A DNA stretch of 64,000 nucleotides from positions 133-64,132 of the forward strand of contig CAJXEC010000002.1 in NCBI GenBank assembly GCA_913052165.1, read 5' to 3'. This document shows positions 12,190 through 31,790 of this stretch, in pieces. The notes under the pieces are model-generated. The model saw nothing but the letters and a program-made list of their open reading frames with translations. It did not search any database and was not told the origin of the DNA. The translations under genes and the position numbers were made by a program. The first letter of the stretch is position 1, and each line of letters starts with the position of its first letter. This DNA is from an uncultured Rhodospirillaceae bacterium. Lineage in GTDB: Bacteria > Pseudomonadota > Alphaproteobacteria > MPNO01 > UBA2964.

Positions 12190-12687
12190 TTAGATAGGTA
12201 TGACCAATAGGGTATCTATACGCCGTGATTCTAATATGACCCGGCGCTCTGCAAATTTAAGTTCCCCATTATAGTCGATAATTTTGTCCATGTAGCGACC
12301 TGCCGCAAAAAGCATCATTTGACCCTCTGACATCGTTCGGACCAGAGTAAAGTTTGATTTTGTTGCAATCACACCTTGAGATGCGCTCGAGATATGAAGT
12401 GCGCTGACTGAATGACAGTAGGTGTGGGGCTCATAAATATTTGCCTGTCTTAATGCAGTGATCCTATCGCGAAACATCCCAGTCCCTTTACACTGGACAA
12501 GGCATATTGGTAGGCCCATTTCGTGATTTTCGCGTGTAGAAATACTGTATTCGCCATCAGCTGTGAAGAAATTTGGCCAGTCTTCCAACCGGTCATCATC
12601 TATTGTGTGCACGTAATTTGCATTTAGTGCATCAATACGAGGCCTCAGGGAGACTTCATCATCTAGTTGGCTTGGGATCAATGCCAT
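12190..12687 (-). CDS. aromatic-ring-hydroxylating dioxygenase, beta (small) subunit
   Basis: NTF2-like small-subunit pattern (NYVHTIDDDRLEDWPNFFTADGEY). I start it at ATG 12687 (MALIPSQ...), one nt after the alpha stop codon. The longer ORF-track start overlaps the alpha gene. Confidence 0.75.
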   Translation of the reverse strand: MALIPSQLDDEVSLRPRIDALNANYVHTIDDDRLEDWPNFFTADGEYSISTRENHEMGLPICLVQCKGTGMFRDRITALRQANIYEPHTYCHSVSALHISSASQGVIATKSNFTLVRTMSEGQMMLFAAGRYMDKIIDYNGELKFAERRVILESRRIDTLLVIPI

Positions 12688-12688
12688 C

Positions 12689-13936
12689 CTAAATCTCCAT
12701 GCACTCTCTCCAGCCCTTCCAAAACCCTCTGACAGCGGCTTCAGTAACGCGTGATCCCTGACTGGGTTCAATCGCGCGTCCACCCATCGGCATCACTGTT
12801 AGGGCTTCGCGATCCGATTTGGCAGCGCGCTGGACCCATGCTCCAACTGCGCCATCCTCCATAGAGATGAACCCTGCTGGTCCCACTAAATTATTTGTGG
12901 AGACTCGGTGTTGAATCATTTCTTCATCATCATCTTCGAAGCCGAGTATCGTCCATATTAACTCCGACTCGTTCACTCCCTTGGGTATTAGCTGGCGCAC
13001 AGCCAGACAATTTAAAATTTGCTGGATAACAAGGGTTGGAAAAATAGTTTGAATATTATTGGTAACATTATCGCCTAGCTCTAATTTGTGTTCCATTAGT
13101 GTGGGATCTTCAAGGCTGTATGCATCTTGCTTAGACCTAACATTCTCTTTGACTATTTCATCATCCGAAATGTCGGTTCGTTCGGTGTAACTGAGATGGT
13201 GCCAACCCGAGTCACTAATTTTTATTCCACCTCCCATATTGGGTCTCACGACACCAAATGTATTGTGAAAAACATGAAGCAGACTGGCATGATAGGAGTC
13301 CTTGTTGTTCTCAACATATAGCTTCCAGTTATTTTTAAAAATCTGGGAGTAGTAGCCCAATACCTTCAGAGGTTTGATGAGGACTCGATCTACTGCTGAT
13401 ACTAATTCATCTCCCAAGTAATCAGCTACTGGTTCTGTCTTTTCCGAGAAGGTTCCAAACACCAGGCCCCGAAAAACCTCTACCCTTAGTCGCTGGAGCC
13501 CGTGTTCCGAATTTTTAAATTCATCTGTAAGGCCACCCTTGCCGCCTACCCCTCGCCGAAACGCGACAGCGGTGAGATTCCCCCTGAGGTCGTATACCCA
13601 ATTATGGTAAACACAAGCTAATTCTTTCACATTGCCTCGCGGCTTGTAACAAACCAAAGACCCTTTATGCGCACAACGATTTACCATCGCATTAATGTTA
13701 CCGGCCTCATCGCGTACGGCGATGATGGGCGTGTCACCGGCATAGGTTGTCTTATAATCACCCGGTTCCGGAATTTCACATTCTAGACAGAGAAAATTCC
13801 ATACATTCCCCTGAAAAACTTTTTTCTGCTCAACGCGATAAAGTTCCTCGTCCGTATACACCTGAAAGGGCACGCGGGATGTGTCTTCGTATGGCCAGAC
13901 AAAATCCGGATCATTGCCTCTATCTATCGTGTCCAT
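12689..13936 (-). CDS. Rieske non-heme-iron oxygenase, alpha (large) subunit
   Basis: Rieske motif CAHKG...CVYHNW and mononuclear iron motif DSYHASLLH. 415 aa. Confidence 0.88.
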   Translation of the reverse strand: MDTIDRGNDPDFVWPYEDTSRVPFQVYTDEELYRVEQKKVFQGNVWNFLCLECEIPEPGDYKTTYAGDTPIIAVRDEAGNINAMVNRCAHKGSLVCYKPRGNVKELACVYHNWVYDLRGNLTAVAFRRGVGGKGGLTDEFKNSEHGLQRLRVEVFRGLVFGTFSEKTEPVADYLGDELVSAVDRVLIKPLKVLGYYSQIFKNNWKLYVENNKDSYHASLLHVFHNTFGVVRPNMGGGIKISDSGWHHLSYTERTDISDDEIVKENVRSKQDAYSLEDPTLMEHKLELGDNVTNNIQTIFPTLVIQQILNCLAVRQLIPKGVNESELIWTILGFEDDDEEMIQHRVSTNNLVGPAGFISMEDGAVGAWVQRAAKSDREALTVMPMGGRAIEPSQGSRVTEAAVRGFWKGWRECMEI

Positions 13937-14053: not shown

Positions 14054-16384
14054 ATGTCTAACTCGTGCCAGAAAATAACTAATACATTTGTTGGTCAGCC
14101 AGTTCCCCGTATCGAAGATTTGAGGTTACTTCCTGGACGTGGCCAATTTGTTGACGATATGTCTCGGGAAAATTTGTTATGTGCCGTAATGTTTCGTAGC
14201 CCGATTGGCCACGGTCGAATACTCTCCATTGATACCTCTGCCGCGGCAGCTTTGCCCGGAGTTTATTCTATAATTACTGAGGCAGATTTGCCGGCTCAGA
14301 TGCCACTCGTGCCGCTCAGGTTGATGCCTATGGAAGACCTCTTACCTCTCGGTCAGCCAGCCCTGGCAAGAGATAAAGTTCGGTATGTAGGGGAAGTAAT
14401 TGCGATAATTCTAGCAAAAAGTATTGCGATCGGGGAAGACGCTAGGAGTCTAATCGAAATTGATATCGAGCCTTTGCCGGCTATCTCGAACACCGCGGAT
14501 GCGCGGGATAATAGATCTTTGCTGTTTGAAGGATGGGGGAGTAACGAGGCCGTCGTTTATTCCGCCCAAAAAGGCGATGCCCGGGCTGCTTTTGAGAATG
14601 CTGACTATATCCGACGAGAGAAATTTTCAACCCAAAGGCACCTGGCCTTGCCTATGGAGGCCCGTGGAGTGCTGGCCGAATGGAATGATACGCGAAGCAC
14701 TCTTAAAGTGGATGGTGCCGCTAAAGTACCTTTTCCTAACAGACGCATACTGGCGGATATGTTGGATATAGAGGAACGCGCCATTCAAATGATAGAAGCA
14801 GACGTGGGCGGTGGATTTGGAGCCAGGGGTGAATTCTTTCCAGAAGACTTTTTAGTTCCCTTTGCCGCGCGTCAAACTGGACGGCCGGTTAAATGGATCG
14901 AGGATCGGCGGGAAAACCTTCAGACCACTGGGCATGCTCGCGAAATGGATTGTGAAATAGAAATCGCCTGCCGGTCTGACGGCGCTGTTATTGGCTTACG
15001 TGGCGAGGTGTGGGTTGATGCAGGTTCGTATTTTCGTACTAACGGGCCCATAAGTCCTAGAAACGTGGCTCAGTTTATGTCGGGTCCCTACCGCGTGGCT
15101 AATATCGAAATTAATTCACACACGATGCTAACCAACAAGGCTCCGATTGGCACCTATCGTGGTCCAGGCAGATTTGAAACGATTTTTTTCTGCGAGCGTT
15201 TATTTGATCTGGCGGCGAAAGATCTTGGTATTGATCCCGCAGAATTTCGGAGACGCAATTTGGTCCGAGAAGACGAAATGCCCTATCAAATCGCTACAAT
15301 AACCCCTGTTTCAGTCACCGATGAGCTGGATAGCGGTAATTACGAAAAGATCCTAGACCGGTGTATTGATGAGATAGGTTGGGCCGATAAGCGACCACTT
15401 TGTGGAAATTTGATTGAGGGGGTCTACCATGGCTTGGCAGTCTCTTGTTTCATTGAGGGTGGTGGGGCTGGACCCCGTGAGAATGCAAGCGCGGCTATTC
15501 GGTCGGACGGCTCGGTTTGCGTTAATGTGGGCTCTACCTCGGTGGGACAAGGCGTTGAGACCATTCTCACTCAGATTGCTGCTGATGCGATGGAGGTACC
15601 CCTTGATAAGATCACTCTAGCCCATGGCTCAACGGATCTAATAAGCGAAGGCTTTGGATCATATCATTCGAGATCAACGGTGATGGGTGGTTCTGCAATA
15701 ATTTTGGCAATAACTAAATTACGTGAACAGATAAAGGAAGTTGCTGCTGTCCGTTTTGGTTGCCGGTCTGATCAGGTCAATCTAGTGAGTCAAATGGCGC
15801 TGGGACCCGATCAAAAGAGCGCTACTTTTTCGGAGTTAGCCGACGGTATCGAAAAGGTGGAGGAGACTTTTTATAATCATAAGCATACTTACGCCAATGG
15901 ATCTGCGGCGGCTCATGTCACTGTTGATCCTGAAACCGGAGAGGTAAAAATAGTTGATCTCGTTTTTTTTGAAGATGTTGGGAAGATTATCAACCCAATA
16001 ACTTTGAAGGGGCAGGCCATCGGGGCGATGATGCAAGGGCTAGGAGGAACCTTTCTCGAGCATGTGATGTATGACCAAGAGGGTCAGCTAATATCCGGAA
16101 CATTGGCTGATTATTTGGTTCCATCCTCCTCAAGCTTTGAAAATTTGCAAGCCTATTTGTTAGAAGAGCACCCGTCCCCGATCAGTCTTCTGGGCGCAAA
16201 GGGAGCAGGAGAGGGCGGCTTATTGCCAATAGGTGGTTTAATGGCGAATGCAGTGTCAAGTGCATTATCCTCACTTGGGATCGAAATTAGAAAGCTACCA
16301 CTAACGCCAGACTATATATGGAGCCTAATAAATGATGCGGTAAGGCCAGTCCAGACCTCTAAAACCGATCATTTAGATGTCTGA
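14054..16384 (+). CDS. xanthine dehydrogenase-family molybdopterin-binding large subunit (CoxL-like, not form I)
   Basis: 776 aa. N-terminus GQPVPRIEDLRLLPGRGQFVDD, GGGFG motif, active-site loop TYRGPGRFE, C-terminal GAKGAGEGG. No FeS or FAD subunit genes are adjacent. Confidence 0.88.
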   Translation: MSNSCQKITNTFVGQPVPRIEDLRLLPGRGQFVDDMSRENLLCAVMFRSPIGHGRILSIDTSAAAALPGVYSIITEADLPAQMPLVPLRLMPMEDLLPLGQPALARDKVRYVGEVIAIILAKSIAIGEDARSLIEIDIEPLPAISNTADARDNRSLLFEGWGSNEAVVYSAQKGDARAAFENADYIRREKFSTQRHLALPMEARGVLAEWNDTRSTLKVDGAAKVPFPNRRILADMLDIEERAIQMIEADVGGGFGARGEFFPEDFLVPFAARQTGRPVKWIEDRRENLQTTGHAREMDCEIEIACRSDGAVIGLRGEVWVDAGSYFRTNGPISPRNVAQFMSGPYRVANIEINSHTMLTNKAPIGTYRGPGRFETIFFCERLFDLAAKDLGIDPAEFRRRNLVREDEMPYQIATITPVSVTDELDSGNYEKILDRCIDEIGWADKRPLCGNLIEGVYHGLAVSCFIEGGGAGPRENASAAIRSDGSVCVNVGSTSVGQGVETILTQIAADAMEVPLDKITLAHGSTDLISEGFGSYHSRSTVMGGSAIILAITKLREQIKEVAAVRFGCRSDQVNLVSQMALGPDQKSATFSELADGIEKVEETFYNHKHTYANGSAAAHVTVDPETGEVKIVDLVFFEDVGKIINPITLKGQAIGAMMQGLGGTFLEHVMYDQEGQLISGTLADYLVPSSSSFENLQAYLLEEHPSPISLLGAKGAGEGGLLPIGGLMANAVSSALSSLGIEIRKLPLTPDYIWSLINDAVRPVQTSKTDHLDV

Positions 16385-17705
16385 GAAGGATACAATTCAT
16401 TTAGCAGCAGATCTGTCTTTTCTGCACACCGATTTTCTTTGGCGTATGCCAGGGTCTTGGGCAGGTTACCCATATTATAGCAGTTCCGAATTTTATGAAG
16501 AAATAGCAAAAACTGCAGAGCGGGGTAGGATGGACCTACTTTTTTTTGGTGATACCGGCGGCACCTCGGAAGATTTTGGGGGATCCCATGATGCAGTGGT
16601 GACCAATGGAGTAAAATGGCCACGTCACGATATGACCCCTATGATCCCGATCTTAGCCCGCATGACAAAACATATTGGTTATGCGTTAACTATGTCTACG
16701 ACTTATCATCATCCGTTTCATTGTGCCCGGGTATTTAACGCACTTGACCATGTTACAAAAGGGCGGATTGCATGGAATGCGGTGACATCGGCCTATAAGT
16801 GGGAGGCAATGAATTGGGGCTTTGATGTGATGATGGAGCATGGCGAACGCTATAGAAGAGCCCAGGAGTTTTTGGAAGTTGCTGGCCGACTATGGGACAG
16901 TGTTGAGCCTGATGCGGTTGTGTTAGACAGGGAAGAGGGCTTATTTCTGGATCCAAAGAAAGTTCACCGCCTAGATTTTAAAGGCGAATATTTTAAAATT
17001 CGGGGTCCATTGCCCGCGTTGCCATCGCCTCAACAAAAACCGTTGATTATCCAAGCTGGGCAGTCTGGCCCGGGTATGGATCTCGCTGCAAGATTTGCAG
17101 ACCTGCAATTTAGTACAAGACGGACAATTGATAGCATGAAGGAGCATCGAACCGAGATCGATAAAAGATTGCTGAAATTCTCGAGAAAACCCAGGGATCT
17201 TGGAATCCTGTGGTCGGTTAGGGTGCAGGTGGCGGAGTCACAATCTGAGGCAAGAGCTAAGGAAAAAGCTTTTCTTGACGCGATACCCCCTGAAGGAGGC
17301 CTTATCGAAATGTCCCAATGGTTTGGCGTCGATTTTTCTTTGGCAGATCCGGAAATGACCCTGGCTGATTTTATTGATCAGGTCTGCGAGACAAATGGCA
17401 ATCTCGGAACTTTTGAGGAGATACTTCGGACGACAAGCCCTAATACGACGGTCAAAGAGCTTGGCCGGGATTACCTAACTAAGCGAATAATGGCGGTTGA
17501 GGGGACACCTAAGGCGATTGTGGATAAATTAGAACGGGTGCATTTCGAGACTGGGGCAAATGGAGGATTTATCCTTGGTCGGGGCTATCACGCAATGAAT
17601 AACATTAGGGACTTTGTGGATCTTGTTGTACCAGAATTGCAGAGGAGGGGTCTCTCTAAAAAGGAATATTCTTCCGGCACACTCAAGGATAATTTCAACG
17701 ACTAG
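16377..17705 (+). CDS. LLM-class flavin-dependent monooxygenase, NtaA/SnaA/DszA subfamily
   Basis: 442 aa, paralogous to 9498..10826 (shared HxxxxFxxLDHxxxGRxxWNxVTS pattern). Its start overlaps the preceding Mo-subunit stop by 8 nt. Confidence 0.85.
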   Translation: MSEKDTIHLAADLSFLHTDFLWRMPGSWAGYPYYSSSEFYEEIAKTAERGRMDLLFFGDTGGTSEDFGGSHDAVVTNGVKWPRHDMTPMIPILARMTKHIGYALTMSTTYHHPFHCARVFNALDHVTKGRIAWNAVTSAYKWEAMNWGFDVMMEHGERYRRAQEFLEVAGRLWDSVEPDAVVLDREEGLFLDPKKVHRLDFKGEYFKIRGPLPALPSPQQKPLIIQAGQSGPGMDLAARFADLQFSTRRTIDSMKEHRTEIDKRLLKFSRKPRDLGILWSVRVQVAESQSEARAKEKAFLDAIPPEGGLIEMSQWFGVDFSLADPEMTLADFIDQVCETNGNLGTFEEILRTTSPNTTVKELGRDYLTKRIMAVEGTPKAIVDKLERVHFETGANGGFILGRGYHAMNNIRDFVDLVVPELQRRGLSKKEYSSGTLKDNFND

Positions 17706-17714
17706 TGAATTGAG

Positions 17715-18545
17715 CTAAGAGACTTTCCATTCTGCCCAACCGCATCCAACATAGACTTCTGATATCGGAGCGTAATCAATCAATTTGAACCCCTCACCAT
17801 TCATTGCCGCATGGGCAATTATCCAACTCCGGATTTCTTCGCTCCCATTCCCCACAGTTGGAAGGTTTTTTACAAGCTTTTCAATAATTTCGGTTTCATT
17901 TGCTTTTGAGAATAATGCAATACAATCTTGATCAAATCGTTCGTCAATTTTGCCCATATTAGGTTCGCCGATAGAGTGACTGAGGCCACCAGATCCGATC
18001 ACTGCAACTTTGAGATCCTCCGGGTAATTTACTATAGCTGATCGGATCATTCGACCCCAATCGAAGCAGCGTTTTATGCTAGGCATGGGTTGCTCAAGCT
18101 CGTTTACAAAAATCGGAATAACTGTAGGTAGTGGGTCAAGCCCCAGCTTCCATAGTGGGATACAGAATCCGTGGTCGAGATTTACATTGTAAGATAGGGA
18201 TGGATCAAATCCGCTTTCGAATGCCGTGTCTGCCAGGTGGCGAGAGAATTCAGGGTGCCCTTCTATTTTTTCATATTGGAACTTCGGAGATAAAAATGGC
18301 TCCGGAGGTCCTCCGTGTTCGGGTCCGAGGCCAATACAAAAAGCCGGTAGGTTGTCCAAAAAGAAATTTACCCAATGGTCGGGGGCCAGCATAATAATAA
18401 GATCAGGACAAAGTTTTTTTATCCGGGACCTCATCTCACTAAAACCGGAACTAATCTTTTGTTTAGCCTCTGTTGGGAGTATATCCCAGTCGCGAGCAAT
18501 GAGTGGGGCGTGGCTTGAGGCGAAGGCACCAACTAACTGAGCCAT
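17715..18545 (-). CDS. class III extradiol ring-cleavage dioxygenase, LigB-family catalytic subunit
   Basis: 276 aa. N-terminus MAQLVGAFASSHAP, then PDHWVNFF and GSGGLSH motifs typical of LigB/protocatechuate 4,5-dioxygenase beta-like proteins. Confidence 0.8.
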   Translation of the reverse strand: MAQLVGAFASSHAPLIARDWDILPTEAKQKISSGFSEMRSRIKKLCPDLIIMLAPDHWVNFFLDNLPAFCIGLGPEHGGPPEPFLSPKFQYEKIEGHPEFSRHLADTAFESGFDPSLSYNVNLDHGFCIPLWKLGLDPLPTVIPIFVNELEQPMPSIKRCFDWGRMIRSAIVNYPEDLKVAVIGSGGLSHSIGEPNMGKIDERFDQDCIALFSKANETEIIEKLVKNLPTVGNGSEEIRSWIIAHAAMNGEGFKLIDYAPISEVYVGCGWAEWKVS

Positions 18546-18546
18546 A

Positions 18547-18810
18547 TCAATGTCGCTCCGAAGTGTTAATTTTTCTTAGACGCTCTATAAATTCTTTATC
18601 TCCCATTCCACAAATCCCGCAATAAAACCGAAGTAGGTAGGCATTTACGTGCGGTGCGATTGCCGCAAGGTTATCATCCCTTACTGCCTGCTTCATTTCT
18701 TCGCTAATGGGATACTGCTCTAAAAACGGTTCTCTATCAGCGCGCCAACTGCTCACATCACCAGATTTCTGGAGGTCAAACATCATTTTACTAAGCCAAT
18801 AGTCTGTCAT
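18547..18810 (-). CDS. LigA-like small subunit of the extradiol dioxygenase
   Basis: 87 aa with the LigA-domain pattern (W/FRADREPFLEQYPISEEMKQAVRDDN..NAYLL). One-nt gap to the LigB-like gene. Confidence 0.68.
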   Translation of the reverse strand: MTDYWLSKMMFDLQKSGDVSSWRADREPFLEQYPISEEMKQAVRDDNLAAIAPHVNAYLLRFYCGICGMGDKEFIERLRKINTSERH

Positions 18811-18824
18811 AATCGCTCTTGATA

Positions 18825-19271
18825 TCAGGTCAAATCCTCGAGCACTTCTGCTGGATGAATAGCTGCTTCTGGGTTTTCATATATTTTTAAGATTTTCATA
18901 TCGGGTCCGAGCAAATAGGACATACGTTTGGGGCGCTCTTGGTCCCGAGTTTCGACAGCCCCATAAGAAATCGCTACACTTTTCGATTGATCCGATAACA
19001 AGTCTCCAGTCAAGGCATTATCTTCTGACCATCGCTTCAGCTCCTCGGGCAGACTAAATGTAATTCCAATAGGAATCGCATTCTGTTCTAAAAGTCCCTG
19101 GGTTCTATCACGGAACCCCTTTGCTTCGTTTGTTCACCCGCCGCCATATGCCCTTGGGAAAAACCAAACCAGTACATTTTGCCCCGCACAGTCGGAAAGC
19201 TTGATTAAATCACCATTTTGATTGGGTAATTCAAAGTCTGGAGCTAATTCGCCGATTTTTAGATTGGCCAT
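18825..19271 (-). CDS. BCP/PrxQ-type peroxiredoxin with in-frame TGA (candidate selenocysteine) at the peroxidatic position
   Basis: Reading from ATG 19271 (GAGG RBS about 12 nt upstream) gives one frame of 148 codons to TGA 18825. It has a single internal TGA at 19134..19136: MANLKIGELAPDFELPNQNGDLIKLSDCAGQNVLVWFFPRAYGGG-U-TNEAKGFRD...LLSDQSKSVAISYGA...HPAEVLEDL. The protein is colinear with full-length BCP. The TGA replaces the Cys of the F-x-P-x-x-x-x-x-G-C-T-x-E-A-x-x-F-R-D motif. The ORF track reports only the 62-aa tail. Confidence 0.7.
19091..19122 (-). promoter_or_regulatory. candidate bacterial SECIS stem-loop 3' of the UGA
   Basis: In mRNA sense: AAAG GGGUUC CGUGAUA GAACCC AGGGA CUUU. 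It has a perfect 6-bp upper stem (19113..19118 with 19100..19105) and a 7-nt loop containing GU. A 4-bp lower stem closes across a 5-nt bulge. The upper stem starts 15 nt after the UGA. Confidence 0.5.
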
Positions 19272-19296
19272 TGGATTGCCCTACCTCTACAAAAAC

Positions 19297-19329
19297 AGAT
19301 AGGTATATTATACCCAAATATAGCTATCT
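19297..19329 (-). promoter_or_regulatory. candidate promoter -10 box overlapped by an 11-bp inverted repeat (possible operator)
   Basis: The minus strand has TATAAT at 19307..19312, about 36 nt upstream of the ATG. AGATAGGTATA (19297..19307) and TATAGCTATCT (19319..19329) form an inverted repeat matching at 10 of 11 positions. No convincing -35 box. Confidence 0.3.
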
Positions 19330-19354
19330 AGTGATATATCCAATTTATCCGTTC

Positions 19355-20716
19355 TTAAATATTTAGCATCGATACAAGAGGGCGGACATCGGGTGCGCTT
19401 TTAAGCCCTGCCCATGCATGGGTTATTTCTTGCGCTCGATTTGAACCAATGATTGGCTCAGCCTGTTTGGAAAATTTTGTCGCAATCTCTTCGCTCGTCA
19501 TAGGATTTTTAGGGTGCCCAGGCGGGTTTCGACTCTTTGCTTCCAGAATGGTTCCGTTTTTCATCCTGGTTACGACCCTCACAGCTAGGTTCTCGCGCGT
19601 CATTGCCTCTATATCTTCGTCTATCGTAACAACAATCTTGTTCATCAGCGGGCGCAATGTTGGGTCCAGAACTTTTGCCTCAGAAAATGAAGCAATGGAC
19701 GGAGGACCGTCGGCGAATGTCCGGGCGAAAATATATGGCATCGAATGATCCGCTGTTTCTCGAGTTTGAGGATCCCACTTTTCAGGTCCACCCGCGATTT
19801 CATGTTTTCCTTGTGAGTCACAGAAAATTTCAATGACCTCTATCTCCTCAATAGACGAAAAACCCAATTTTTCCCTTAGCTCAAGAGCCGCCCAAACGAC
19901 TGGCTGACCGCTTGCTTCTAATGGCCAATATTTTATCTGCACCTCCTCAAACCGCATTTTTCCTCCCTGATGAGGAAGGGGATCTATTATGAATGGTCCT
20001 GTAATATTGTCGAACAAACCGGCCCGACCTTCAAAAATGCTATCAGGCCCAGGCATACCCTCCGCGGCTAACATGGCGGCAAAAGTTGCATTGCGGGCCG
20101 CGAACGGTGTCGCCACATTTTTCCATGCAGTTAGAGCTCCAGAACGAGATACTCGAAGCGGAACAGTGGCGCTTCCTGTTATACTGATGGCGTTTGCCGT
20201 TTGTTCAAATGACAGTCCCAAAAGGCGCGAAAGTCCTGCAACTGCAGAAATCCCAACAGCGAATCCCTGATCCCAACCTCGCTCCCGAAGCTTGGAGGCT
20301 TCGGTAATACGAATAAAAGTCTCATAGGTAATAAGGGCCGAAAGAATCAACTCTCGACCGGTAATTTTTGTCGATCCAGCGAGCGCTAAATGGGCTCCGA
20401 GCCCATCTGATGGATGTCCACCGGGAAATCGATCATTGAAATCGTAATTGCGGATCATACAGCTATTAATAAAACCGGCCATATCGAGCGGCATCGTTTG
20501 TGCATTGAATAAAGTTTTGCCGGCGAATTTGCCGGGGGTTTGTCCAAAGGAAATTTCTTTACCGATATTTGCTGGCAGAGTGTTTTTTGCCGCTAAAGCG
20601 CATCCAATAGAATCGATAATGTGTTGTGCCAACAAGTCCGGAATGTGTTCAACAATTTCGTCATATTTCCAATCACATGAAAAACGGGCTATTTCCTGGG
20701 TTAAGTTATCCACCAA
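19355..20716 (-). CDS. MmgE/PrpD-family protein (2-methylcitrate dehydratase-like fold)
   Basis: 453 aa. Family-typical N-terminal region (FSCDWKYDEIVEHIPDLLAQHIIDSIGCALAA) and C-terminal ADHSMPY motif. Confidence 0.85.
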   Translation of the reverse strand: MVDNLTQEIARFSCDWKYDEIVEHIPDLLAQHIIDSIGCALAAKNTLPANIGKEISFGQTPGKFAGKTLFNAQTMPLDMAGFINSCMIRNYDFNDRFPGGHPSDGLGAHLALAGSTKITGRELILSALITYETFIRITEASKLRERGWDQGFAVGISAVAGLSRLLGLSFEQTANAISITGSATVPLRVSRSGALTAWKNVATPFAARNATFAAMLAAEGMPGPDSIFEGRAGLFDNITGPFIIDPLPHQGGKMRFEEVQIKYWPLEASGQPVVWAALELREKLGFSSIEEIEVIEIFCDSQGKHEIAGGPEKWDPQTRETADHSMPYIFARTFADGPPSIASFSEAKVLDPTLRPLMNKIVVTIDEDIEAMTRENLAVRVVTRMKNGTILEAKSRNPPGHPKNPMTSEEIATKFSKQAEPIIGSNRAQEITHAWAGLKSAPDVRPLVSMLNI

Positions 20717-20872
20717 ATACCCCTCAATCCATGATTCTTAGTTGATCAGAAAATGCACGTTTCGGAGAATCAATCATTTGAAGCCGAATGAGTGAAGTAG
20801 TCTCTTAGAAATTAATAAAGCTGGGTCGCCTACTTTTATTGGAATTTTTACCTCTGAAAGCCGCAAAAAACA

Positions 20873-21271
20873 CTATTCCTCGACTGTGACAGTCTCATAT
20901 TCTGCGGGAATGGTGAGTTCTAGTAGCTCGTAGTCTTCAGAATAGTACATCACATTGTGCTTTATTTTAGGCGGCTGGATCCAACAATCTCCCTCATTAA
21001 ATTCAACTTCGCCTTGGCCTTCAAACCAAACCCTGGATTTTCCTTTTAAAATCATGACCATCTGAAATTCAAGATCATGATAGTGAAGCCCACTGCCCTC
21101 TTCAGGGCACGGCTTAGTTGTGCGAACTATTTGCGCGTGGACGCGACCCATGGTGGCGTCGGAGATACCAAGGTCTCGATATTCCCGATATACTCGCAAT
21201 CCTCCGCTAACAAAAGGGTTTTCCTGGGCTCTGTTGACCACAAATTTTGACTGAATTTTTTCCGCTGACAC
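20873..21271 (-). CDS. cupin-domain protein
   Basis: About 132 aa with a cupin core (GLHYHDLEFQMVMILKG...GDCWIQPPKIKHNV). I prefer GTG 21271, 6 nt after an AAGGAGG RBS, over TTG 21277. Confidence 0.75.
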   Translation of the reverse strand: MSAEKIQSKFVVNRAQENPFVSGGLRVYREYRDLGISDATMGRVHAQIVRTTKPCPEEGSGLHYHDLEFQMVMILKGKSRVWFEGQGEVEFNEGDCWIQPPKIKHNVMYYSEDYELLELTIPAEYETVTVEE

Positions 21272-21390
21272 GATCAACCTCCTTTTCTCTGTGCTTCAGA
21301 ATAGTGTGCGATATTTTTTTGATTATTTGAAGATTTTACCTTCGACAGGAATCAGATAATAAAAACAGTTAGGAATTAAGGAGTATTGAA

Positions 21391-22458
21391 TTGAGTTCTT
21401 TTACACATATGGGTTATCCATCTCGGGTGATACTTGGGGCTGGGGCGATCAAAAGGTTAGCCGAGGAGGTAAGCCGTCTGAACAAGACGCGAGTAATGTT
21501 TTGTTGTACGAAGAGCCGGGTGCCTCAAGTGGAGAAAATCGCCGGTTTGCTCGGAGATAAAACCATTGGCATTTGCTCGGACGCTAAAATTTTTGTCCCG
21601 ATGGCGTCGGTTGAGGAAGGGCGCGCAATGGCAGCTGAATTAAAGGCTGATTGTCTGGTTTCCTTCGGAGGCGGGACAGCTGTAGGATTAGCGAAATCGA
21701 TAGCTCTAGAATTTGATATTCCGATAATTGCTATTCCGACCACATATTCAGGTTCGGAAACTACTCACATCCAAGGAATTATTCACCATGATGGGGTTAG
21801 ACGAAATAATTATGATTTAAAAATGCTTCCGTCGGTTTTGATTTATGATCCGGAGCTTGCAGTTGCCCTCCCTAAGGATACCTCTATTGCTAGTGGTTTA
21901 AATGCAATAGCCCATTCAGTCAGTTCTTTCCTAGGAAGAAATGCCAATCCTGTTACCGATATGTTCGCCGAGAGAGGAATTGGAGAAATGGCGGCGGCGT
22001 TGGTTAAAATTGCTCAAGATCCGGCCAACATAGATGCGCGCGCACAGGCTTTTCTTGGATCATGGTTGTGTGGTTCGACCATAATATCGGCGGGTACCAC
22101 ATTGCATCACAAAATGGTCCACGTGCTCGGTGGCGGCTGGGATCTTCCACATGGTCCCACCCACGGAATCATGTTACCCCACTCCACAGCCTATGTGGAG
22201 AGGGTTCAGCCTGATCCCTGTCGAAGAATTTCTCGTGCCTTGGGAAATGGCGAGCAGGATGCGCCTCGCGCTCTTTACGGACTTTTGGAGGCGTGCGGTG
22301 TGCCTCGCGGACTGAGAGACCTAGGGCTGGATCGAGAGGTTTTAACCGAGGCCACAGACAGAATTATGCTCGATCAATATTTTTGTGCGCGTCCTTACGA
22401 ACGGGATGAAATCCTGGCACGCTTGGAAGAAGCTTGGCGTGGCAGATCGCCGAGCTAG
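21391..22458 (+). CDS. maleylacetate reductase (iron-containing alcohol dehydrogenase family)
   Basis: 355 aa. N-terminus FTHMGYPSRVILGAGAIKRL, GGGTAVGLAK, and HHKMVHVLGG...HG metal-site pattern, as in TfdF/PnpE-type maleylacetate reductases. Confidence 0.8.
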   Translation: MSSFTHMGYPSRVILGAGAIKRLAEEVSRLNKTRVMFCCTKSRVPQVEKIAGLLGDKTIGICSDAKIFVPMASVEEGRAMAAELKADCLVSFGGGTAVGLAKSIALEFDIPIIAIPTTYSGSETTHIQGIIHHDGVRRNNYDLKMLPSVLIYDPELAVALPKDTSIASGLNAIAHSVSSFLGRNANPVTDMFAERGIGEMAAALVKIAQDPANIDARAQAFLGSWLCGSTIISAGTTLHHKMVHVLGGGWDLPHGPTHGIMLPHSTAYVERVQPDPCRRISRALGNGEQDAPRALYGLLEACGVPRGLRDLGLDREVLTEATDRIMLDQYFCARPYERDEILARLEEAWRGRSPS

Positions 22459-22506
22459 TCTTATGTGACGAGAAAGCAATTTGCTGTCGAACAAATAAGC
22501 AGGTTA

Positions 22507-23237
22507 TCAATTTTTCTGCTCTTTAAGCGCTTGATTTAGACGTGGTATTACCTGCTCAGCCGTCATTCGCAGAGATCTTTTGGTCAACGTTTCATCAACC
22601 CAGTCCATGCCAGCTACAATCAACGCCCAAAAGTTGCCAACTTCGGCCCGCAATAAAAAAATTGATCTACCACTCCGTTTACAGTGCCGGATACTACTAT
22701 GTCATCGACGATCCTGCCCGGTGTGAGGGCCTCATCTGGTTCTTCAGAATGCCCTCTAAAACTCCGCGTCTTCCGGCTCCTTTAAATTTGGTCAACAACT
22801 GGTTGTGGTAAAATCTATATGGGCTGTTTGCATCAAACTTTCCTTACCGAGAGGCCAGTATTTCATCATCTGCAATGAATATAATTCGAGCGATTTTTGA
22901 GTCCATTTGATTCGCTTTTATTCCTGCATCGTGAAAGCCTTGTTGATAATTTTGTCATGAGGAGGTTGGCGGAGAAGGGGTAGCAGTGAGGTCGTCCCAT
23001 TTCGACCACCTCTCTGGAAAATGATATTACCACCGAACCGACTATTTAAGGGTGAGGGTTTTTCAGTGGTTTTGGCATAACACCTAAGTCAAATCCCGGA
23101 TTGAAAAATGTTCTCAAACAATTGGATCATAGAAGCCGAGCTGATCACATACGATGATGGTTTCCCGATCATCTCGGGGGGTAGTTTGGTAATCCCGACT
23201 CAATAGGTTGATGGGCATGGTAATAAACGAGACGCAT
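22507..23237 (-). pseudogene. decayed LLM-class (luciferase-like) flavin oxidoreductase
   Basis: No long ORF exists, but minus-strand fragments in different frames resemble LLM proteins. FDLGVMPKPLKNPHP is followed by TAA. GTVNGVVDQF is another fragment. The C-terminal frame reads AEVGNFWALIVAGMDWVDETLTKRSLRMTAEQVIPRLNQALKEQKN then TGA at 22507..22509. Several stops and frame changes lie between them. The 5' limit is uncertain. Confidence 0.6.
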
Positions 23238-25550: not shown

Positions 25551-28334
25551 TTATTCCGCTGCAGCCGCGCCTTTATTCATAGGCTCGACTTTAGCCGCAC
25601 AGAACTTGAATTCCGGAATTTTTCCTAGGGGATCAAGTTGGGGGTTGGTTAAAATATTAGCCGCGGCTTCCGAAAAGCAGAACGGAACAAAGATCATATT
25701 TTCCGGAACTGAGCGGTCCTCCCTTGCTTTGATTGATATGTGTCCCCTCCGGGTTTTAATGCTTACCAATTCTCCTGGCTTGACCCCTAACCTCTCCATG
25801 TCTCTATAATTAAGACATGCAATTGCTTCCGGCTCTAAAGCGTCTAAATTCACTGCGCGCCGGGTCATCGCGCCAGTGTGCCAATGTTCAAGAAGTCTTC
25901 CAGTAGAGAGGATCATAGGATATTCATTGTCGGGTAGCTCATCTGGTGGAACAATATCTACAGGAACTATTTTTGCTCGTCCGCTAGAAGTCGGGAATCC
26001 GTCTCCGAATATTATTTCCTCCCCTGGGTTTTCGGGCGCCAGACAGGGGTAAGTCACAGAGTTTTCTCTCTCAACCCTTTCCCAGGTAATATTGGCCAAG
26101 GAAGGCATGATTTTTGACATTTCTGCAAAAACATCGCTGGGATCTTTATAATTCCAATCTAACCCTATTCTTATCGCTAATTCTTTAATGAGCTCCCAGT
26201 CTTGACGGGCATTGCCGGGCGGTTCTATTGCCGGACGAGCCATTTGTACTTGGCGATTGGTGTTGGTGAAGGTACCGGATTTTTCTGCATGGGCGGAAGC
26301 GGGTAAGACTACATCTGCGTGCCAAGCCGTTTCGGTGAGAAAAATATCTTGGACAACTAAGTGTTCTAGAGACGCCAAAGCTTCCCGTGCATGATTTTGA
26401 TCAGGATCGGACATGGCCGGGTTTTCACCAAGTATATACATCCCCTTGATTTGGCCTTGGAGAATTGAATTGACAATTTCTACGACTGTTAGCCCTCTTT
26501 GGGGATCTAAATCTTGTCCCCAAAACTCTTGGTATTGCTCGCGGATTTCTTTGCCTTCAACCGACCTGTAGTCGGGATAAAACATTGGGATCAGGCCTGC
26601 ATCTGAGGCCCCTTGCACGTTATTTTGTCCACGAAGAGGATGAAGACCTGTCCCGGGTCTTCCTACCTGCCCTGTCACTAGCGAGAGAGCGATCAGACAT
26701 CGCGCATTATTAGTTCCATGGACGTGTTGTGAAACCCCCATTCCCCAAAAAATGATGGAGGCTTTGGACGATGCGTAAATGCGCGCGACCTCTCGGATAA
26801 TATTTGCTGGTATACCACAAATTTTTTCCATCTTTTCGGGCGGGAAGTCCGAGATTTTCTGCTTTAACTCGTCATACCCATCTGCATTGGACTGAATATA
26901 TTGTTTGTCGGCTAAACCCTCTGAGATAATCGTATGAAGCATGCCATTGAGTAATGCGACGTCGCTGCCTGGTTTAAATTGAAGCATATGGCTCGCGTAT
27001 CTTCCGAGGCCAGATTGATGTCCCCTAGGGTCCATGACAATCAATTTTGCCCCTTTTTTTGCCGCGTCTTTGATATAAGTTGCGGCGACGGGGTGATTTT
27101 CTTCCGGGCGTGCCCCAATGACGATTATGCATTCTGCGTCCTTAGCGGCTGTAAAAGGTGCTGAAACAGCACCAGAATTCAAGCCCTCCATCAGTGCTGC
27201 AACAGAGGATGCGTGGCAAAGTCTGGTGCAATGGTCCACATTATTAGTTCTAAACCCCTGTCGGATGAGTTTTTGAAATAAATATGCTTCCTCATTTGAA
27301 CATTTAGCGGATCCAAAACCTGCTATCGCGTTGCCACCATCTCGCTGAAAGATTGCTTTTAGCCCAGAGGCTGCCCTGTCTAGTGCTTCCTCCCAAGTGG
27401 CTTCTCGAAAAACTTTCTCAATTCTTTCACTCCCAATTTGGATGTCTGCTTGCTTTGGTACATCATCTCTGCGGATTAAGGGTTGGGTTAGTCGGTCTGG
27501 GCTATGAACGTAATCAAATCCAAAGCGCCCCTTCACGCAAAGCCTATTGTTATTTGCTGGACCATTTTTACCGTCGACAAAGAGTATCTTAGAATCTTTG
27601 ACATTTACATTGGTTTGACATCCTACTCCGCAAAACGGGCAGAGTGTTTCCACGGATCTTGTCTCAAATTCTGTTCTTGTACCCGAGGCATTCAATAGGT
27701 TCGCTTCCATCAATGCACCTGTAGGACAAGCTTGCACACATTCCCCGCAAGCGACACAGGTCGACTCACCCATGTTTCTGTCGAAATCAAAAACAATTTT
27801 TGATTGATGGCCCCGATATGCGAGCCCAATTACATCATTTACTTGAACTTCACGACAAGCCCTGACACACAGATTGCAGTGGATACAAGCATCAAGGTTA
27901 ACGGCGATTGCCGAGTGAGAATTGTCCGGCTCAGGCTGGTCCGCGCTTGGAAGACGATTAGTTTTCGTCACCCCCATCGCATCAACCCACCCCCAAAATT
28001 TTGACTCAGGATCATGGCTGATCTGTCGCTCTGGCTGATCCGCCAGCAAAAGTTCAAAAACCATTTCCCGAGCTTTCTTGGCACGTGCTGACACCGTTTT
28101 CACTCGCATGCCCTCTGTCGGTTTTCTTATGCATGAGGCAGCGAGCGTTCGTTCACCCTCTACCTCGACCATACAGGCTCGGCAGTTTCCATCTGCGCGA
28201 TAGCCAGGATCTGGTTGCCAACACAAATGTGGTATTTCCACACCGGTCCTCGCTGCAGCCTCCCATATTGTCTCACTTGGTTCAGCGGTGATGGTTTTGT
28301 CATCAAGTTCGAAGGTGATTTTTTCAGACATCAT
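25551..28334 (-). CDS. fdsA: NAD-dependent formate dehydrogenase, catalytic alpha subunit (Cys type)
   Basis: 927 aa. It has an N-terminal 2Fe-2S motif (CRACMVEV), two 4Fe-4S ferredoxin motifs (CIHCNLCVRAC, CVACGECVQACP) and the MopB 4Fe-4S motif CPFCGVGC. The active site NNVDHCTRLCHASSV has Cys where E. coli FdhF has Sec. Confidence 0.93.
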   Translation of the reverse strand: MMSEKITFELDDKTITAEPSETIWEAAARTGVEIPHLCWQPDPGYRADGNCRACMVEVEGERTLAASCIRKPTEGMRVKTVSARAKKAREMVFELLLADQPERQISHDPESKFWGWVDAMGVTKTNRLPSADQPEPDNSHSAIAVNLDACIHCNLCVRACREVQVNDVIGLAYRGHQSKIVFDFDRNMGESTCVACGECVQACPTGALMEANLLNASGTRTEFETRSVETLCPFCGVGCQTNVNVKDSKILFVDGKNGPANNNRLCVKGRFGFDYVHSPDRLTQPLIRRDDVPKQADIQIGSERIEKVFREATWEEALDRAASGLKAIFQRDGGNAIAGFGSAKCSNEEAYLFQKLIRQGFRTNNVDHCTRLCHASSVAALMEGLNSGAVSAPFTAAKDAECIIVIGARPEENHPVAATYIKDAAKKGAKLIVMDPRGHQSGLGRYASHMLQFKPGSDVALLNGMLHTIISEGLADKQYIQSNADGYDELKQKISDFPPEKMEKICGIPANIIREVARIYASSKASIIFWGMGVSQHVHGTNNARCLIALSLVTGQVGRPGTGLHPLRGQNNVQGASDAGLIPMFYPDYRSVEGKEIREQYQEFWGQDLDPQRGLTVVEIVNSILQGQIKGMYILGENPAMSDPDQNHAREALASLEHLVVQDIFLTETAWHADVVLPASAHAEKSGTFTNTNRQVQMARPAIEPPGNARQDWELIKELAIRIGLDWNYKDPSDVFAEMSKIMPSLANITWERVERENSVTYPCLAPENPGEEIIFGDGFPTSSGRAKIVPVDIVPPDELPDNEYPMILSTGRLLEHWHTGAMTRRAVNLDALEPEAIACLNYRDMERLGVKPGELVSIKTRRGHISIKAREDRSVPENMIFVPFCFSEAAANILTNPQLDPLGKIPEFKFCAAKVEPMNKGAAAAE

Positions 28335-30031
28335 AAGTCCCCTGGGAAATATTTCATGACTGAAAGAAGTGGGTTAGGCGCGGCTTGTCCCAAGCCGCAA
28401 ATGGAAGCATCTGCCATTACATTTGCCAAATCGTTAAGGGTTTCCATATCCCACTTTGGTTCCGCCATTAGTGCTATCGCTTTCTCTGTCCCCTGCCGGC
28501 AGGGTGTGCACTGACCGCAGCTCTCGTCCTCAAAAAATTTCATAAGATTTAGCGCTACATCTTTCATGTCATCTTGATCAGAGAGAAAAATTACTGCGTG
28601 AGACCCAACAAAGCAGCCATGCTCTTCTAATGTTCCAAAATCTAACGGTAGATCGGCAAGGCTCTCAGGTAGTATGCCTCCAGAGGCTCCGCCGGGCAGG
28701 TAAGCTTTAAACGCATGTCCATCACTCATTCCATCGCAATAATTTATCAGAAGTTCACGAGCAGTCGTTCCAGCTGGCGCTAATTTTACGCCTGGATTTT
28801 TGACTCGCCCAGAAACCGAGTAGCTGCGAAGTCCTTTCGAACCTCGCACACCATGACTGGCAAACCAATCCGCTCCCTTCTCAAGGATTTTTGGAACCCA
28901 AATAAGAGTTTCGACATTATTAACGAGCGTGGGACGGTCGAAAATACCAGCTTGCGCAACATATGGGGGCCTGTGTCTGGGAAGTCCCCGTTTTCCCTCA
29001 ATCGACTCAATCATCGCGGACTCCTCCCCACAGATGTAAGCACCTGCACCGCGACGTAAATGAACCTTAGTATGATTTGTGAGGCCTGCTGTTCGTAAAG
29101 CTGAAATTTCTTTTAAAAGAATTTTGTAGACGGCTGGGTATTCATCGCGGAGATAAATATATATTGCTTCCGCCTCGACAGCCCAAGCGGCTATCAGCAT
29201 ACCCTCCAGAAATGCATGGGGCTCACGTTCTAGATAATGACGATCCTTAAAAGTACCAGGTTCACCCTCATCTGCGTTTACGGCCATCATCCTGGGACCT
29301 GGCTGTGATCGAACCAAATCCCATTTTCGGCCCGTCGGGAAACCGGCTCCACCCAGCCCCCGAAGCCCGCCATCAGATAGTGCTGCAATGACCTCGTCTC
29401 GTGACCTGCCACCTTCGATGCAAGATCGCAATATGTTATACCCCGTTGATGCCAGCCGCGCTTCTAAGTTTTCATAGTCCGGTATGATGGGGTCCCGGGT
29501 ACCAGATGCAATGGTAGATAAAACGCTATCCACAGCCGCATTATCAACGTGATGGTGACCTACTTCGCACACTGGTGCTTGGTCGCAACGACCCATGCAA
29601 GGTGCGCGTATGATGCGAACGTTCAGTGGGGATGATCTCTCCAGAGCCGACATAAGGGTATCTGCACCTTTAAGCATGCAGCTCAGAGAGTCACATACTC
29701 TTACGGTAGTTTCTGGAGGGGGAACCTGATCGTCATGGACGATATCAAAATGCGCGTAAAAAGACGCAGTTTCATAAACTTCTGACATTGGAATTCGCAT
29801 TTCCTCTGCCAGGGCATGTAATAGCCCGGCGGGAAGGAAACCTTTTTTATCTTGAACCAAATGCAGATATTCAATCAGAAGATCTCTGTTTCTCGGGGTG
29901 TCTCCGAGAATTACCCGAATCTCTTCAAGGTCTATGTCGTCTAGGACTCTTCCCTTCGGAAATCTCGGGGCCTTACGACGTCCTGAGCCCGGGTGGACTT
30001 TACTCGGCGTTGTTGTGGTGGGCTGGTCCAT
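28331..30031 (-). CDS. fdsB: formate dehydrogenase beta subunit, fused NuoE-like plus NuoF-like domains
   Basis: 566 aa. N-terminal NuoE-type 2Fe-2S motif (CDSLSC...CMGRCDQAP). NuoF-type GLRGLGGAGFPTGRKW FMN/NADH site and C-terminal ESCGQCTPCR cluster. 4-nt ATGA overlap with the alpha gene. Confidence 0.9.
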   Translation of the reverse strand: MDQPTTTTPSKVHPGSGRRKAPRFPKGRVLDDIDLEEIRVILGDTPRNRDLLIEYLHLVQDKKGFLPAGLLHALAEEMRIPMSEVYETASFYAHFDIVHDDQVPPPETTVRVCDSLSCMLKGADTLMSALERSSPLNVRIIRAPCMGRCDQAPVCEVGHHHVDNAAVDSVLSTIASGTRDPIIPDYENLEARLASTGYNILRSCIEGGRSRDEVIAALSDGGLRGLGGAGFPTGRKWDLVRSQPGPRMMAVNADEGEPGTFKDRHYLEREPHAFLEGMLIAAWAVEAEAIYIYLRDEYPAVYKILLKEISALRTAGLTNHTKVHLRRGAGAYICGEESAMIESIEGKRGLPRHRPPYVAQAGIFDRPTLVNNVETLIWVPKILEKGADWFASHGVRGSKGLRSYSVSGRVKNPGVKLAPAGTTARELLINYCDGMSDGHAFKAYLPGGASGGILPESLADLPLDFGTLEEHGCFVGSHAVIFLSDQDDMKDVALNLMKFFEDESCGQCTPCRQGTEKAIALMAEPKWDMETLNDLANVMADASICGLGQAAPNPLLSVMKYFPGDL

Positions 30032-30119
30032 TTCAGTTTGACTTTGCTTTATTCAATATCCTGGCACCATGGTGCTTTTATTCATGAGTTAAGATCGTTT
30101 CGCGACCAGTTATAACCCC

Positions 30120-31790
30120 TTAAAATAGTCCTTCAATTTGCCCTTCCTCATTCAGTCTTATGGAGGCTGCTGAAGGCACTCGAGGCAGGCCTGGCATCGT
30201 CATTACGTCCCCGCAAATCACCACAATGAATCCTGCCCCTGCTGAGAGCCGCACCTCTCTGATATTTACATCAAAGCCCTCCGGGGCCCCCATTAATTTA
30301 GGGTCGGTAGAGAAGCTCAGGGGAGTTTTTGCCATACAAACTGGAAACTTTCCATAACCTCGTTTTTCCAATGTCGAGAGTTGGTTATGCACCGCAGTTG
30401 AGGCCGAGACGGTTCCAGCTCGGTATATTTTTTTGGCAACTGTCTTTATCTTTTCCCAGAGTGGCATTTCATCAGGGTAGAGGTATTCAAAACTATTAGG
30501 CTGATTGGACATTGCAACTATTTCATGCGCTAGCTCTTCGGCTCCGGCAGCACCGTTAGCCCAATGCGTGCACTCAACAGCTTTTGAACCTGCGTCTCCG
30601 CATATGTCTTGGAGAAGCCTTATTTCCGCATCAGTGTCAGTTAGGAACCGATTAATCCCGACCACTGCGGGAACCCCAAAGCTTTTAATGTTTTCTATGT
30701 GTCGCAACATATTAGCAGCACCAGTCCGGACAGCCTCAACATTCTCTTTGCCCAAATCCTCTTTGGCAACGCCTCCGTGCATTTTTAGAGCGCGAACGGT
30801 CGCGACAAGTGCGACTGCATCGGGCTGAAGGCCCGCGGACCGACACTTTATATCGAAAAATTTTTCGGCCCCAAGGTCTGATCCAAAGCCCGCTTCTGTG
30901 ACAACATAGTCAGATAGCGCCAGTGCTGACTTTGTTGCGGACACGGAATTACAGCCATGTGCAATATTAGCGAAGGGACCGCCGTGGACAAATGCCGGGG
31001 TATGTTCAAGCGTTTGCACCAGGTTAGGCAGAATGGCTTCCTTAAGCAGCACTGTAAGGGGGCCCTCGGCTTTTAACGCATCTGCTGTAATGGGTTCCCG
31101 TCCACGCGTCTCCGCGATAACGATTCTGGCGATTCGTTCTTGCAAGTCTTGGAGGTTATTGGCCAGGCAAAAAATTGCCATAATCTCTGAGGCCACGGTT
31201 ATATCAAACCCTGTTTCACGGGGAAAACCATTCACGGCCCCTCCCAATGAGGCAACGATTGATCTCAATGCCCTATCATTAAGGTCAACCACTCGTCGCC
31301 AAGCTACCCGTCGGGAGTCAATTCCAAGACTATTTCCCCAATAGATATGGTTATCGATAAGAGCTGATAGCAAATTGTGCGCCGATGTGATTGCATGGAA
31401 ATCACCGGTAAAATGAAGGTTTATGTCTTCCATTGGAACAACCTGAGCATATCCTCCACCAGCTGCTCCTCCTTTCACGCCGAAGCATGGACCAAGGCTG
31501 GGTTCCCTGAGGCAGATGGTTGCATTTTTCCCAATTCGGTTAAGCGCGTCACCCAACCCAACCGTTGTCGTGCTTTTGCCCTCTCCCGCTGGGGTGGGGC
31601 TAATGCCGGTAACAAGGATTAATTTGCCTTTTCTCGACTCATCACCGAGAAAACTTACGTCTACCTTTGCTTTTGTGTGACCGAATGGTTGCAAATAATT
31701 ACTCGGAACGCCCAGCTTTTCGGCAATCTCCCCGATTGGCTTGATTTTGGCCTCACGCGCTATTTGTAAATCGGATTTTACCTCTGACAT
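30120..31790 (-). CDS. fhs: formate--tetrahydrofolate ligase
   Basis: 556 aa with highly conserved Fhs motifs ([43 protein letters not shown]). Confidence 0.96.

Follow-up and report, generated by a model that had tools for sequence, protein, structure and literature searches.

A hairpin 15 nucleotides downstream of an in-frame UGA in a peroxiredoxin-like gene of an uncultured Rhodospirillaceae bacterium, very likely a bacterial selenocysteine insertion sequence

On the minus strand of a 64,000-nucleotide (nt) stretch of DNA from an uncultured Rhodospirillaceae bacterium (contig CAJXEC010000002.1, positions 133 to 64,132; the whole stretch is called the window below), a putative gene for a BCP/PrxQ-type peroxiredoxin (Prx)-like selenoprotein carries one in-frame UGA, and a small RNA hairpin follows this codon within the coding region. 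We hold with high confidence that this hairpin serves the BCP-type peroxiredoxin-like gene as a bacterial selenocysteine insertion sequence (SECIS). In comparisons of homologous genes, the hairpin was shown to be tied to the TGA and to be missing from the forms with cysteine (Cys) at the same codon, and it displays covariation and a localised synonymous constraint. The features of the locus are as follows.

18825..19271 (-): putative BCP/PrxQ-type peroxiredoxin-like selenoprotein open reading frame (ORF), 148 codons, ATG at 19271, terminal TGA at 18827..18825.
19134..19136 (-): in-frame UGA, proposed selenocysteine (Sec) codon, residue 46, motif PRAYGGG-U-T; homologues have TGA or TGC/TGT at this exact codon.
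19119..19133 (-): 15-nt spacer ACAAACGAAGCAAAG between the UGA and the hairpin, coding for T-N-E-A-K, from the sequence; its codons +1 to +5 have no synonymous constraint.
19113..19118 (-): 5' arm of the predicted SECIS upper stem, GGGUUC, codons Gly52-Phe53, from the sequence, RNAfold and homologues.
19106..19112 (-): apical loop CGUGAUA, with G at loop position 2 and then U, from the sequence and the codon use of homologues.
19100..19105 (-): 3' arm of the predicted SECIS upper stem, GAACCC, parts of codons Arg56-Thr57-Gln58, from complementarity in homologues.
19091..19099 (-): AGGGA (19099..19095) and CUUU (19094..19091), the 3' side of a proposed lower stem with AAAG (19122..19119) as partner; unsupported.

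Translated from the minus strand, 19271..18825 is a frame of 148 codons that one internal stop interrupts, at codon 46. With Cys put at codon 46 for the protein profile searches, Pfam PF00578 (AhpC-TSA) matched residues 6-128 of the product (E = 1.4e-24), across both sides of the UGA, and the best NCBIfam model was Bcp (PRK09437), with 91 bits where the cut-off is 140. Alignment to the BCP/PrxQ structures PDB 2ywn and 2cx3 placed the UGA on the peroxidatic Cys. Mechanical ORF calling breaks the gene into pieces of 45 and 62 amino acids (aa), and a scan for further TGA-interrupted ORFs found no second credible one in the window.

Read on the minus strand from 19136 to 19091, the order is UGA-ACAAACGAAGCAAAG-GGGUUC-CGUGAUA-GAACCC-AGGGA-CUUU. 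The upper stem consists of six perfect Watson-Crick pairs (19118..19113 with 19105..19100) and begins 15 nt after the UGA; the 7-nt loop begins 21 nt after it and has G-U at its positions 2-3. The original prediction, made from the letters alone, had given these bases and coordinates for stem, loop and spacer, and a check of the minus strand found all of them correct. The hairpin is the minimum free energy (MFE) structure of the 52 nt beginning at the UGA (-10.0 kcal/mol, RNAfold), and the stem keeps a pairing probability of 0.6-0.88 when folded in 60, 120, 180 or all 447 nt of the ORF. Of the 2211 TGA triplets in the window, only 37 (1.7%) have downstream of them a perfect stem of 6 bp or more in the geometry of a bacterial SECIS. 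It had also been proposed that AAAG and CUUU extend the helix across a 5-nt bulge. The two are indeed complementary in the window sequence itself, but a lower stem, drawn either as AAAG/CUUU or as RNAfold's GAAG/CUUU, is paired in 61.5% of the homologue cells, RNAalifold predicts no lower-stem pairs, and the codons concerned (Glu +3, Lys +5, Phe +14) have full synonymous freedom. We rejected the extension on these three grounds.

For the comparison, genome and metagenome collections were scanned with the pattern TGH-ACN-NNN-GAR-GSN-AAR-GGN-TTY-MGN-GAY, which admits TGA, TGC and TGT at the Sec/Cys codon and leaves everything 3' of the loop unconstrained. The homologue counts throughout are counts among the matches listed, at least 120 loci per collection, and describe samples, not a census. 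At least 245 matches were obtained, at least 138 with TGA and at least 107 with TGY (Cys forms); one locus, L078, is a chance match that does not lie in a Prx gene. The TGA matches have intact downstream frames and normal length and come from at least nine bacterial phyla or classes, namely Alpha- and Gammaproteobacteria, Marinimicrobia, Planctomycetota, Myxococcota, Acidobacteriota, Actinobacteria, Krumholzibacteriia and Anaerolineae among the taxa of the TGA loci. All 61 TGA-bearing genome loci among the matches listed are bacterial and the archaeal matches are all Cys forms, as expected for a SECIS placed inside the coding region in the bacterial style. The closest metagenome-assembled genome (MAG) among the matches listed, that of locus L084 (contig JAYQSL010000006.1, Rhodospirillaceae), is syntenic with window positions 15532..23106 at 93.6% identity over 7.6 kb and has the same TGA and hairpin as the window.

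A protein search returned close Cys relatives, P0002 and P0003, which are 49-52% identical to the window protein and have the motif PRAYGGG-C, together with several relatives that have W printed at the Sec codon: P0001 (95% identical), P0004 (52%) and P0008-10 (36-38%). The DNA of P0001, P0004 and P0008 has TGA at this W, and the translations of P0001 and P0010 pass through the terminal TGA, by which 23-35 junk residues are added (P0001 runs on as '...DLTWYQERL'). The W-bearing public translations (P0001, P0004, P0008-P0010; loci L001-L004) are artefacts of short metagenomic contigs called with a TGA-as-Trp code. In the set of P0001, P0004 and P0008, the 3' arms are GAACCC, GAAUCC and GAAUUC, coding for RT, RI and EF, and each is complementary to its GGGUUC or GGAUUC.

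To compare stems, dereplicated sequences were examined for a hexamer downstream that pairs with the 5' arm when the loop is 3-10 nt long; the loop length was optimised in both sets, a choice that favours the controls. All six pairs formed in 115 of the 123 distinct TGA forms and in 2 of the 98 Cys forms, so that the stem-loop the original prediction had called SECIS-like turned out to be conserved wherever the TGA is kept. Pair 3, which involves the third base of the Gly codon, occurs as G.U (69 sequences), A-U (28), G-C (19) and C-G (7), and none of 122 sequences has a mispair; when the partners were permuted, a mean of 106 sequences remained paired and none of 10,000 permutations reached 122. 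Covariation in TGA-keeping orthologues, with compensatory changes at synonymous sites, had been put forward as the decisive check, and with four types of pair 3 and no mispairs its outcome is clearly positive. The 3' arm is coded in three registers, as R/G-I/T/A/V with a 7-nt loop, E-F/L with a 6-nt loop and L-K-P with an 8-nt loop, and the same helix is therefore coded by very different peptides (RI, RT, RA, RV, GI, EF, EL and LKP). Within the 7-nt-loop class (74 distinct sequences), 99.5% of the upper-stem cells are paired, a shift of the partner by one column lowers the pairing sharply, and RNAalifold predicts the same six pairs and nothing more. In this class alone no pair has changed on both sides, since its modal pair 3 is G.U, from which G-C and A-U are each one side away; double-sided changes appear only when the loop-length classes are combined.

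The Cys forms provide the controls. Cys forms without the stem reach up to 61% identity to Sec forms, a closer likeness than most Sec forms have to the window protein. The window's nearest Cys homologues among the matches listed, L005 and L011, are GC-rich and fold strongly, but into unrelated structures. The MFE over 60 nt is alike in TGA and TGY forms (p = 0.52), because many Cys forms come from GC-rich genomes; the position-specific test alone is informative. The same peptide, GFRDEFKKF, is coded through its first six residues by GGA TTC CGT GAT GAA TTC in a Sec form (L002) and by GGT TTT CGC GAC GAA TTT in a Cys form (L055). Two sequences depart from the general pattern. L178 (Ga0193753_10002473), a Cys form with TGC, has the Sec-like peptide GFRDRIP and the near-miss hairpin GGGUUC-CGCGAUC-GCAUCC with five of six pairs; its loop Arg codon is CGC, and the following Arg is CGC and not CGA. 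This looks like a SECIS in decay after replacement of Sec by Cys. L075 (Anaerolineae MAG CAZVQE010000085.1, 5597..5626 (-)) is a TGA form in which the family hairpin is missing (four of six pairs) and another stem, GCGAC-AGUAU-GUCGC, lies some nucleotides further 3', possibly a SECIS at which this other phylum has arrived independently.

The synonymous sites tell where the selection acts. We calculated the codon entropy for each codon from -12 to +29 among the sequences with the majority amino acid, and in TGA forms it drops at codons +6 to +11 only, whereas Cys forms stay near the maximum throughout. At Gly +6 the entropy is 1.03 in TGA forms and 1.88 in Cys forms; the codon in TGA forms is GGG, GGA or GGC only, and the 3' partner matches each time. 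Phe +7 is TTC in 120 of 122 TGA forms against 55 of 100 Cys forms. Arg +8 is CGU or CGG in 121 of 122 TGA forms, of which 98 have U, 23 have G and one has C at loop position 3, the third base of this codon, whereas CGC is the commonest codon in Cys forms. Arg +10 is CGA or AGA in all 76 TGA forms that have it, against CGG or CGC in Cys forms, Glu +10 is GAA in 33 of 33 TGA forms, and Ile +11 is ATC in 68 of 68 TGA forms, with no entry for Cys forms. Conserved residues on either side, among them Pro -7, Gly -1, Thr +1, Lys +5, Phe +14 and Gly +23, come close to the maximal entropy in TGA and Cys forms alike. Judged from this codon use, RNA-level selection is restricted to the approximately 20 nt of the hairpin and is present only when a TGA stands upstream. 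TGA and Cys forms make an unusually clean natural experiment, in which the RNA selection vanishes once Cys replaces Sec.

The hairpin was compared with the consensus bacterial SECIS model (bSECISearch, Zhang & Gladyshev 2005). As summarised in PMC13188914, the model asks for a 3-9 nt loop on a 4-16 bp stem, for a G at loop position 1 or 2 or both, as a rule with G or U after it, for 16-37 nt between UGA and loop, and for an MFE of at most -7.5 kcal/mol. The window hairpin agrees with the model on all four counts, with its 7-nt loop and 6-bp stem, a loop C-G-U-G-A-U-A that has G at position 2 and then U, a UGA-to-loop distance of 21 nt, and -10.0 kcal/mol over the 52 nt from the UGA, a segment that may differ from that of the model. 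It also lies directly 3' of an in-frame UGA whose place in the alignment is taken by Cys in homologues, and orthologues that retain the UGA conserve the structure and show covariation. It differs from the model in two respects: the window loop does not clearly follow the sub-pattern N1-G-[G|U]-N-N2, in which N1 pairs with N2, and no lower helix is conserved.

The likeness to the element of E. coli fdhF is partial. The fdhF SECIS is a 17-nt hairpin (nt 15-31) that starts 11 nt from the UGA and has a bulged U17 and the loop bases G23 and U24; SelB binding requires both U17 and G23 (PMC8659212). The geometry had been described as compatible with fdhF, and this stands in so far as the window hairpin likewise lies in the coding region 3' of the UGA, has a loop G-U about 20 nt or slightly more away, and has a spacing that agrees with the bacterial SECIS model. 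It does not stand for the details: the window stem comprises nt 19-24 and 32-37, 15 nt from the UGA, the loop bases are G26-U27, and the stem has no bulge, being perfectly paired here as it is in 115 of 123 homologues.

The closest known relatives are the marine Prx selenoproteins. A family of COG1225/PF00578 with the motif TxxU and a predicted bacterial SECIS was described from the Sargasso Sea (Zhang, Fomenko & Gladyshev 2005, PMC1088965), and the Global Ocean Sampling metagenome contributed a further 253 Sec forms against 7,348 Cys homologues (Zhang & Gladyshev 2008, PMC2398784). The window protein is predicted to share the fold of this family with Sec at the peroxidatic position, its hairpin is likewise inside the ORF and immediately downstream of the UGA, and Cys homologues exist here as well (P0002, P0003 and the at least 107 TGY matches). 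Most TGA homologues carry ...DTPG-U-T.EGKGFRD..., and they share with the window essentially one hairpin, GGR UUC / CGK GAY (N) / GAA YYC. We infer that the window hairpin is the structure drawn in the published work on Prx SECIS elements. Two differences were found: the window has G and not T three residues ahead of Sec, and its 3' arm is GAACCC (pair 3 G-C), whereas the commonest arm is GAAUCC (G.U). PrxU (Eubacterium acidaminophilum type, NCBIfam NF040737) is also a peroxiredoxin with an active-site Sec, but it belongs to another Prx subfamily, the window protein reaching 21 bits against the NF040737 cut-off of 270.

Taken as a SECIS, the hairpin would work through the bacterial Sec pathway, in which SelB and Sec-tRNA(Sec) act as summarised in PMC13188914. 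SelB carrying Sec-tRNA(Sec) as well as GTP would bind the 6-bp stem and the apical G-U loop from their position 15 nt 3' of the UGA, and with the UGA in the ribosomal A site SelB would bring in selenocysteine so that termination is avoided. The product would be a full-length protein of 148 aa with Sec instead of the peroxidatic Cys. From what is established for this pathway, selA, selB, selC and selD would be expected in the host genome; for Alphaproteobacteria, a tRNA-Sec gene that lies within selB has been reported.

Several points weigh against this interpretation. The tRNA search and the Pfam scans of 42 window ORFs found no tRNA-Sec, selA, selB or selD in the 64-kb window, no tRNA-Sec was found in 60 TGA-bearing related loci, and no sel genes were found in an 8-kb piece of the nearest MAG. 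The geometry is unlike that of the E. coli element in its spacer of 15 nt, not 11, and in the lack of a bulged U. No Rfam family matched the whole window at the gathering thresholds, or positions 18800..19300 at E <= 10. The original prediction had proposed to weigh the folding energy against shuffled controls, and taken at its word the outcome goes against it: 26 of 200 dinucleotide shuffles fold equally well or better (z = -1.25), and so energy alone cannot tell the hairpin from chance. We judge that this test has little statistical power when a hairpin of only 6 bp is folded within 52 nt, and that the comparative data override it. Those data have limits of their own. The scanning pattern fixed most of the 5' arm and the loop, so that the degenerate positions and the 3' arm are the informative part, and the homologues share ancestry, so that p-values, including the Mann-Whitney p = 4e-41 for the difference in pairing between TGA and Cys forms, overstate the number of independent events.

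The strongest alternative to a SECIS is a conserved RNA element that acts without SelB, by near-cognate readthrough (with Trp or Cys), ribosome pausing or mRNA stabilisation. Computation shows RNA selection linked to the TGA, and a trans-acting factor is not something it can identify; the Sec machinery missing from the window and the absence of the E. coli bulged U and 11-nt spacing also fit such an element. On the other hand, a UGA in place of a catalytic Cys is the classic Sec/Cys pair, and the bacterial SECIS model fits, including its G[G|U] loop rule, with loop position 3 selected as U or G. COG1225/PF00578 is, moreover, already an established marine selenoprotein family (PMC1088965, PMC2398784). 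This leads us to regard an element without SelB as quite improbable. We know of no bacterial system in which a hairpin drives UGA readthrough independently of SelB, and this, too, counts against it.

The remaining alternatives fare worse. If the TGA were a true stop or a pseudogene lesion and the hairpin a product of chance, the locus would encode a 45-aa fragment followed by an untranslated remnant, which would agree with the shuffle-like folding energy and with the 45- and 62-aa pieces from ORF calling. Conservation effectively refutes this: TGA stands at the same codon, with the frame intact downstream, in at least 138 matches, which come from nine or more bacterial phyla or classes, the relative with 93.6% DNA identity has kept TGA and hairpin unchanged, and purifying selection is localised on the hairpin, which leaves the explanation highly implausible. 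We give the same very small chance to the idea that the complementarity is a by-product of the conserved peptide G-F-R-D-R-I/T-Q and not of RNA selection. Coding does partly fix the 5' arm and the loop, as G-F-R-D is common to Sec and Cys forms, but the constraint lies at synonymous positions and in TGA forms only (TTC over TTT, CGU/CGG against CGC, NGA-only Arg, ATC-only Ile), the 3' arm pairs while coding RI, RT, RA, GI, EF, EL or LKP in three registers, and where a peptide is identical in the two forms, it is written with codons that pair in Sec forms and with codons that do not pair in Cys forms, by which the idea is refuted. Finally, a global reassignment of TGA to Trp or Gly (e.g. genetic codes 4 or 25), for which no signal would be needed and to which the W given by public callers at the site (P0001, P0004, P0008-10) might seem to point, has a negligible probability and is refuted by stop usage: TGA is an ordinary stop that ends 13 of the 39 window ORFs of at least 250 codons as well as the selenoprotein gene itself, just one window ORF is plausibly TGA-interrupted, and the W translations overrun the natural C-terminus through the terminal TGA.

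The window protein is divergent at its active site. Its motif P-R-A-Y-G-G-G-U (19157..19134 (-), codons 39-46) has Gly for the Thr/Ser of the universal PxxxT/SxxC, and because Gly replaces this conserved Thr, the protein departs from the PxxxTxxU motif of the Prx selenoprotein family while it keeps the family SECIS. Thr is present in 124 of the 135 scorable TGA matches, and Gly stands in its place in about ten TGA loci, including L001, L004, L043, L084, L117, L125, L140, L141 and L154. The Thr-less TGA variants read PRAYGGG-U and PRAFGKN-U, or GKN-U, GTN-U and GNN-U, and the Cys homologues P0002 and P0003 have GGGC; those Thr-less loci that can be assigned to a taxon are all alphaproteobacterial or Rhodospirillales-like. 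The Thr-less clade, a small group of short Prx-like proteins in which Gly takes the place of the catalytic Thr, might be a functionally distinct thiol/selenol oxidoreductase, not a canonical peroxidase, with an inherited standard Prx SECIS hairpin, a suggestion that we consider speculative and rather unlikely.

The selenoprotein gene lies in an apparent operon on the minus strand (17715..20716), whose MmgE/PrpD, Prx-like selenoprotein, LigA-like and LigB-like genes are separated by gaps of 83, 14 and 1 nt. Its other members are as follows.

20716..19355 (-): MmgE/PrpD-family gene, upstream neighbour of the selenoprotein gene.
18810..18547 (-): LigA-like gene, 87 aa, downstream neighbour.
18545..17715 (-): LigB-like extradiol dioxygenase gene, downstream neighbour.

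This PrpD/LigA/LigB neighbourhood is shared only with the near-identical L084, and the other members of the Thr-less clade are without it. If the Thr-less proteins were indeed distinct oxidoreductases, the placement in the operon would be in keeping with a function that protects an Fe(II) enzyme or reactivates it.

Elsewhere, the 64-kb window is abundant in genes for the breakdown of aromatic or heterocyclic compounds. It contains three molybdenum hydroxylases of the xanthine-dehydrogenase/CO-dehydrogenase family (14054..16384 (+), 35326..37659 (+) and 42622..46205 (-)), subunits of a Rieske ring-hydroxylating dioxygenase (12190..13936), luciferase-like monooxygenases and several acyl-CoA dehydrogenases. 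A further group of three genes at 25551..31790 (-) encodes a molybdopterin oxidoreductase of 927 aa, which has Fe-S domains in its N-terminal part, along with a NuoF-like 51K subunit and a formate-tetrahydrofolate ligase. The 927-aa protein resembles the alpha subunit of NAD-dependent formate dehydrogenase and has no in-frame TGA, so that, if it is a formate dehydrogenase, it would be of the Cys type despite the apparent selenoprotein in the same genome.

For annotation, the ORF fragments 19271..19134 and 19013..18825 should be joined as one selenoprotein gene, and public translations of the Prx family that stop at the UGA or carry a spurious W call for the same correction. The family SECIS consensus, GGR-UUC / CGK-GAY-(N) / GAA-YYC at 15 nt after the UGA, could serve to annotate Prx selenoproteins in metagenomes from sea and soil. 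How Sec decoding is currently understood is unchanged by the window hairpin. The gene is very probably a divergent member, with GGGU and not TxxU, of a Prx selenoprotein type known since 2005, with an ordinary signal of the type found in marine bacteria.

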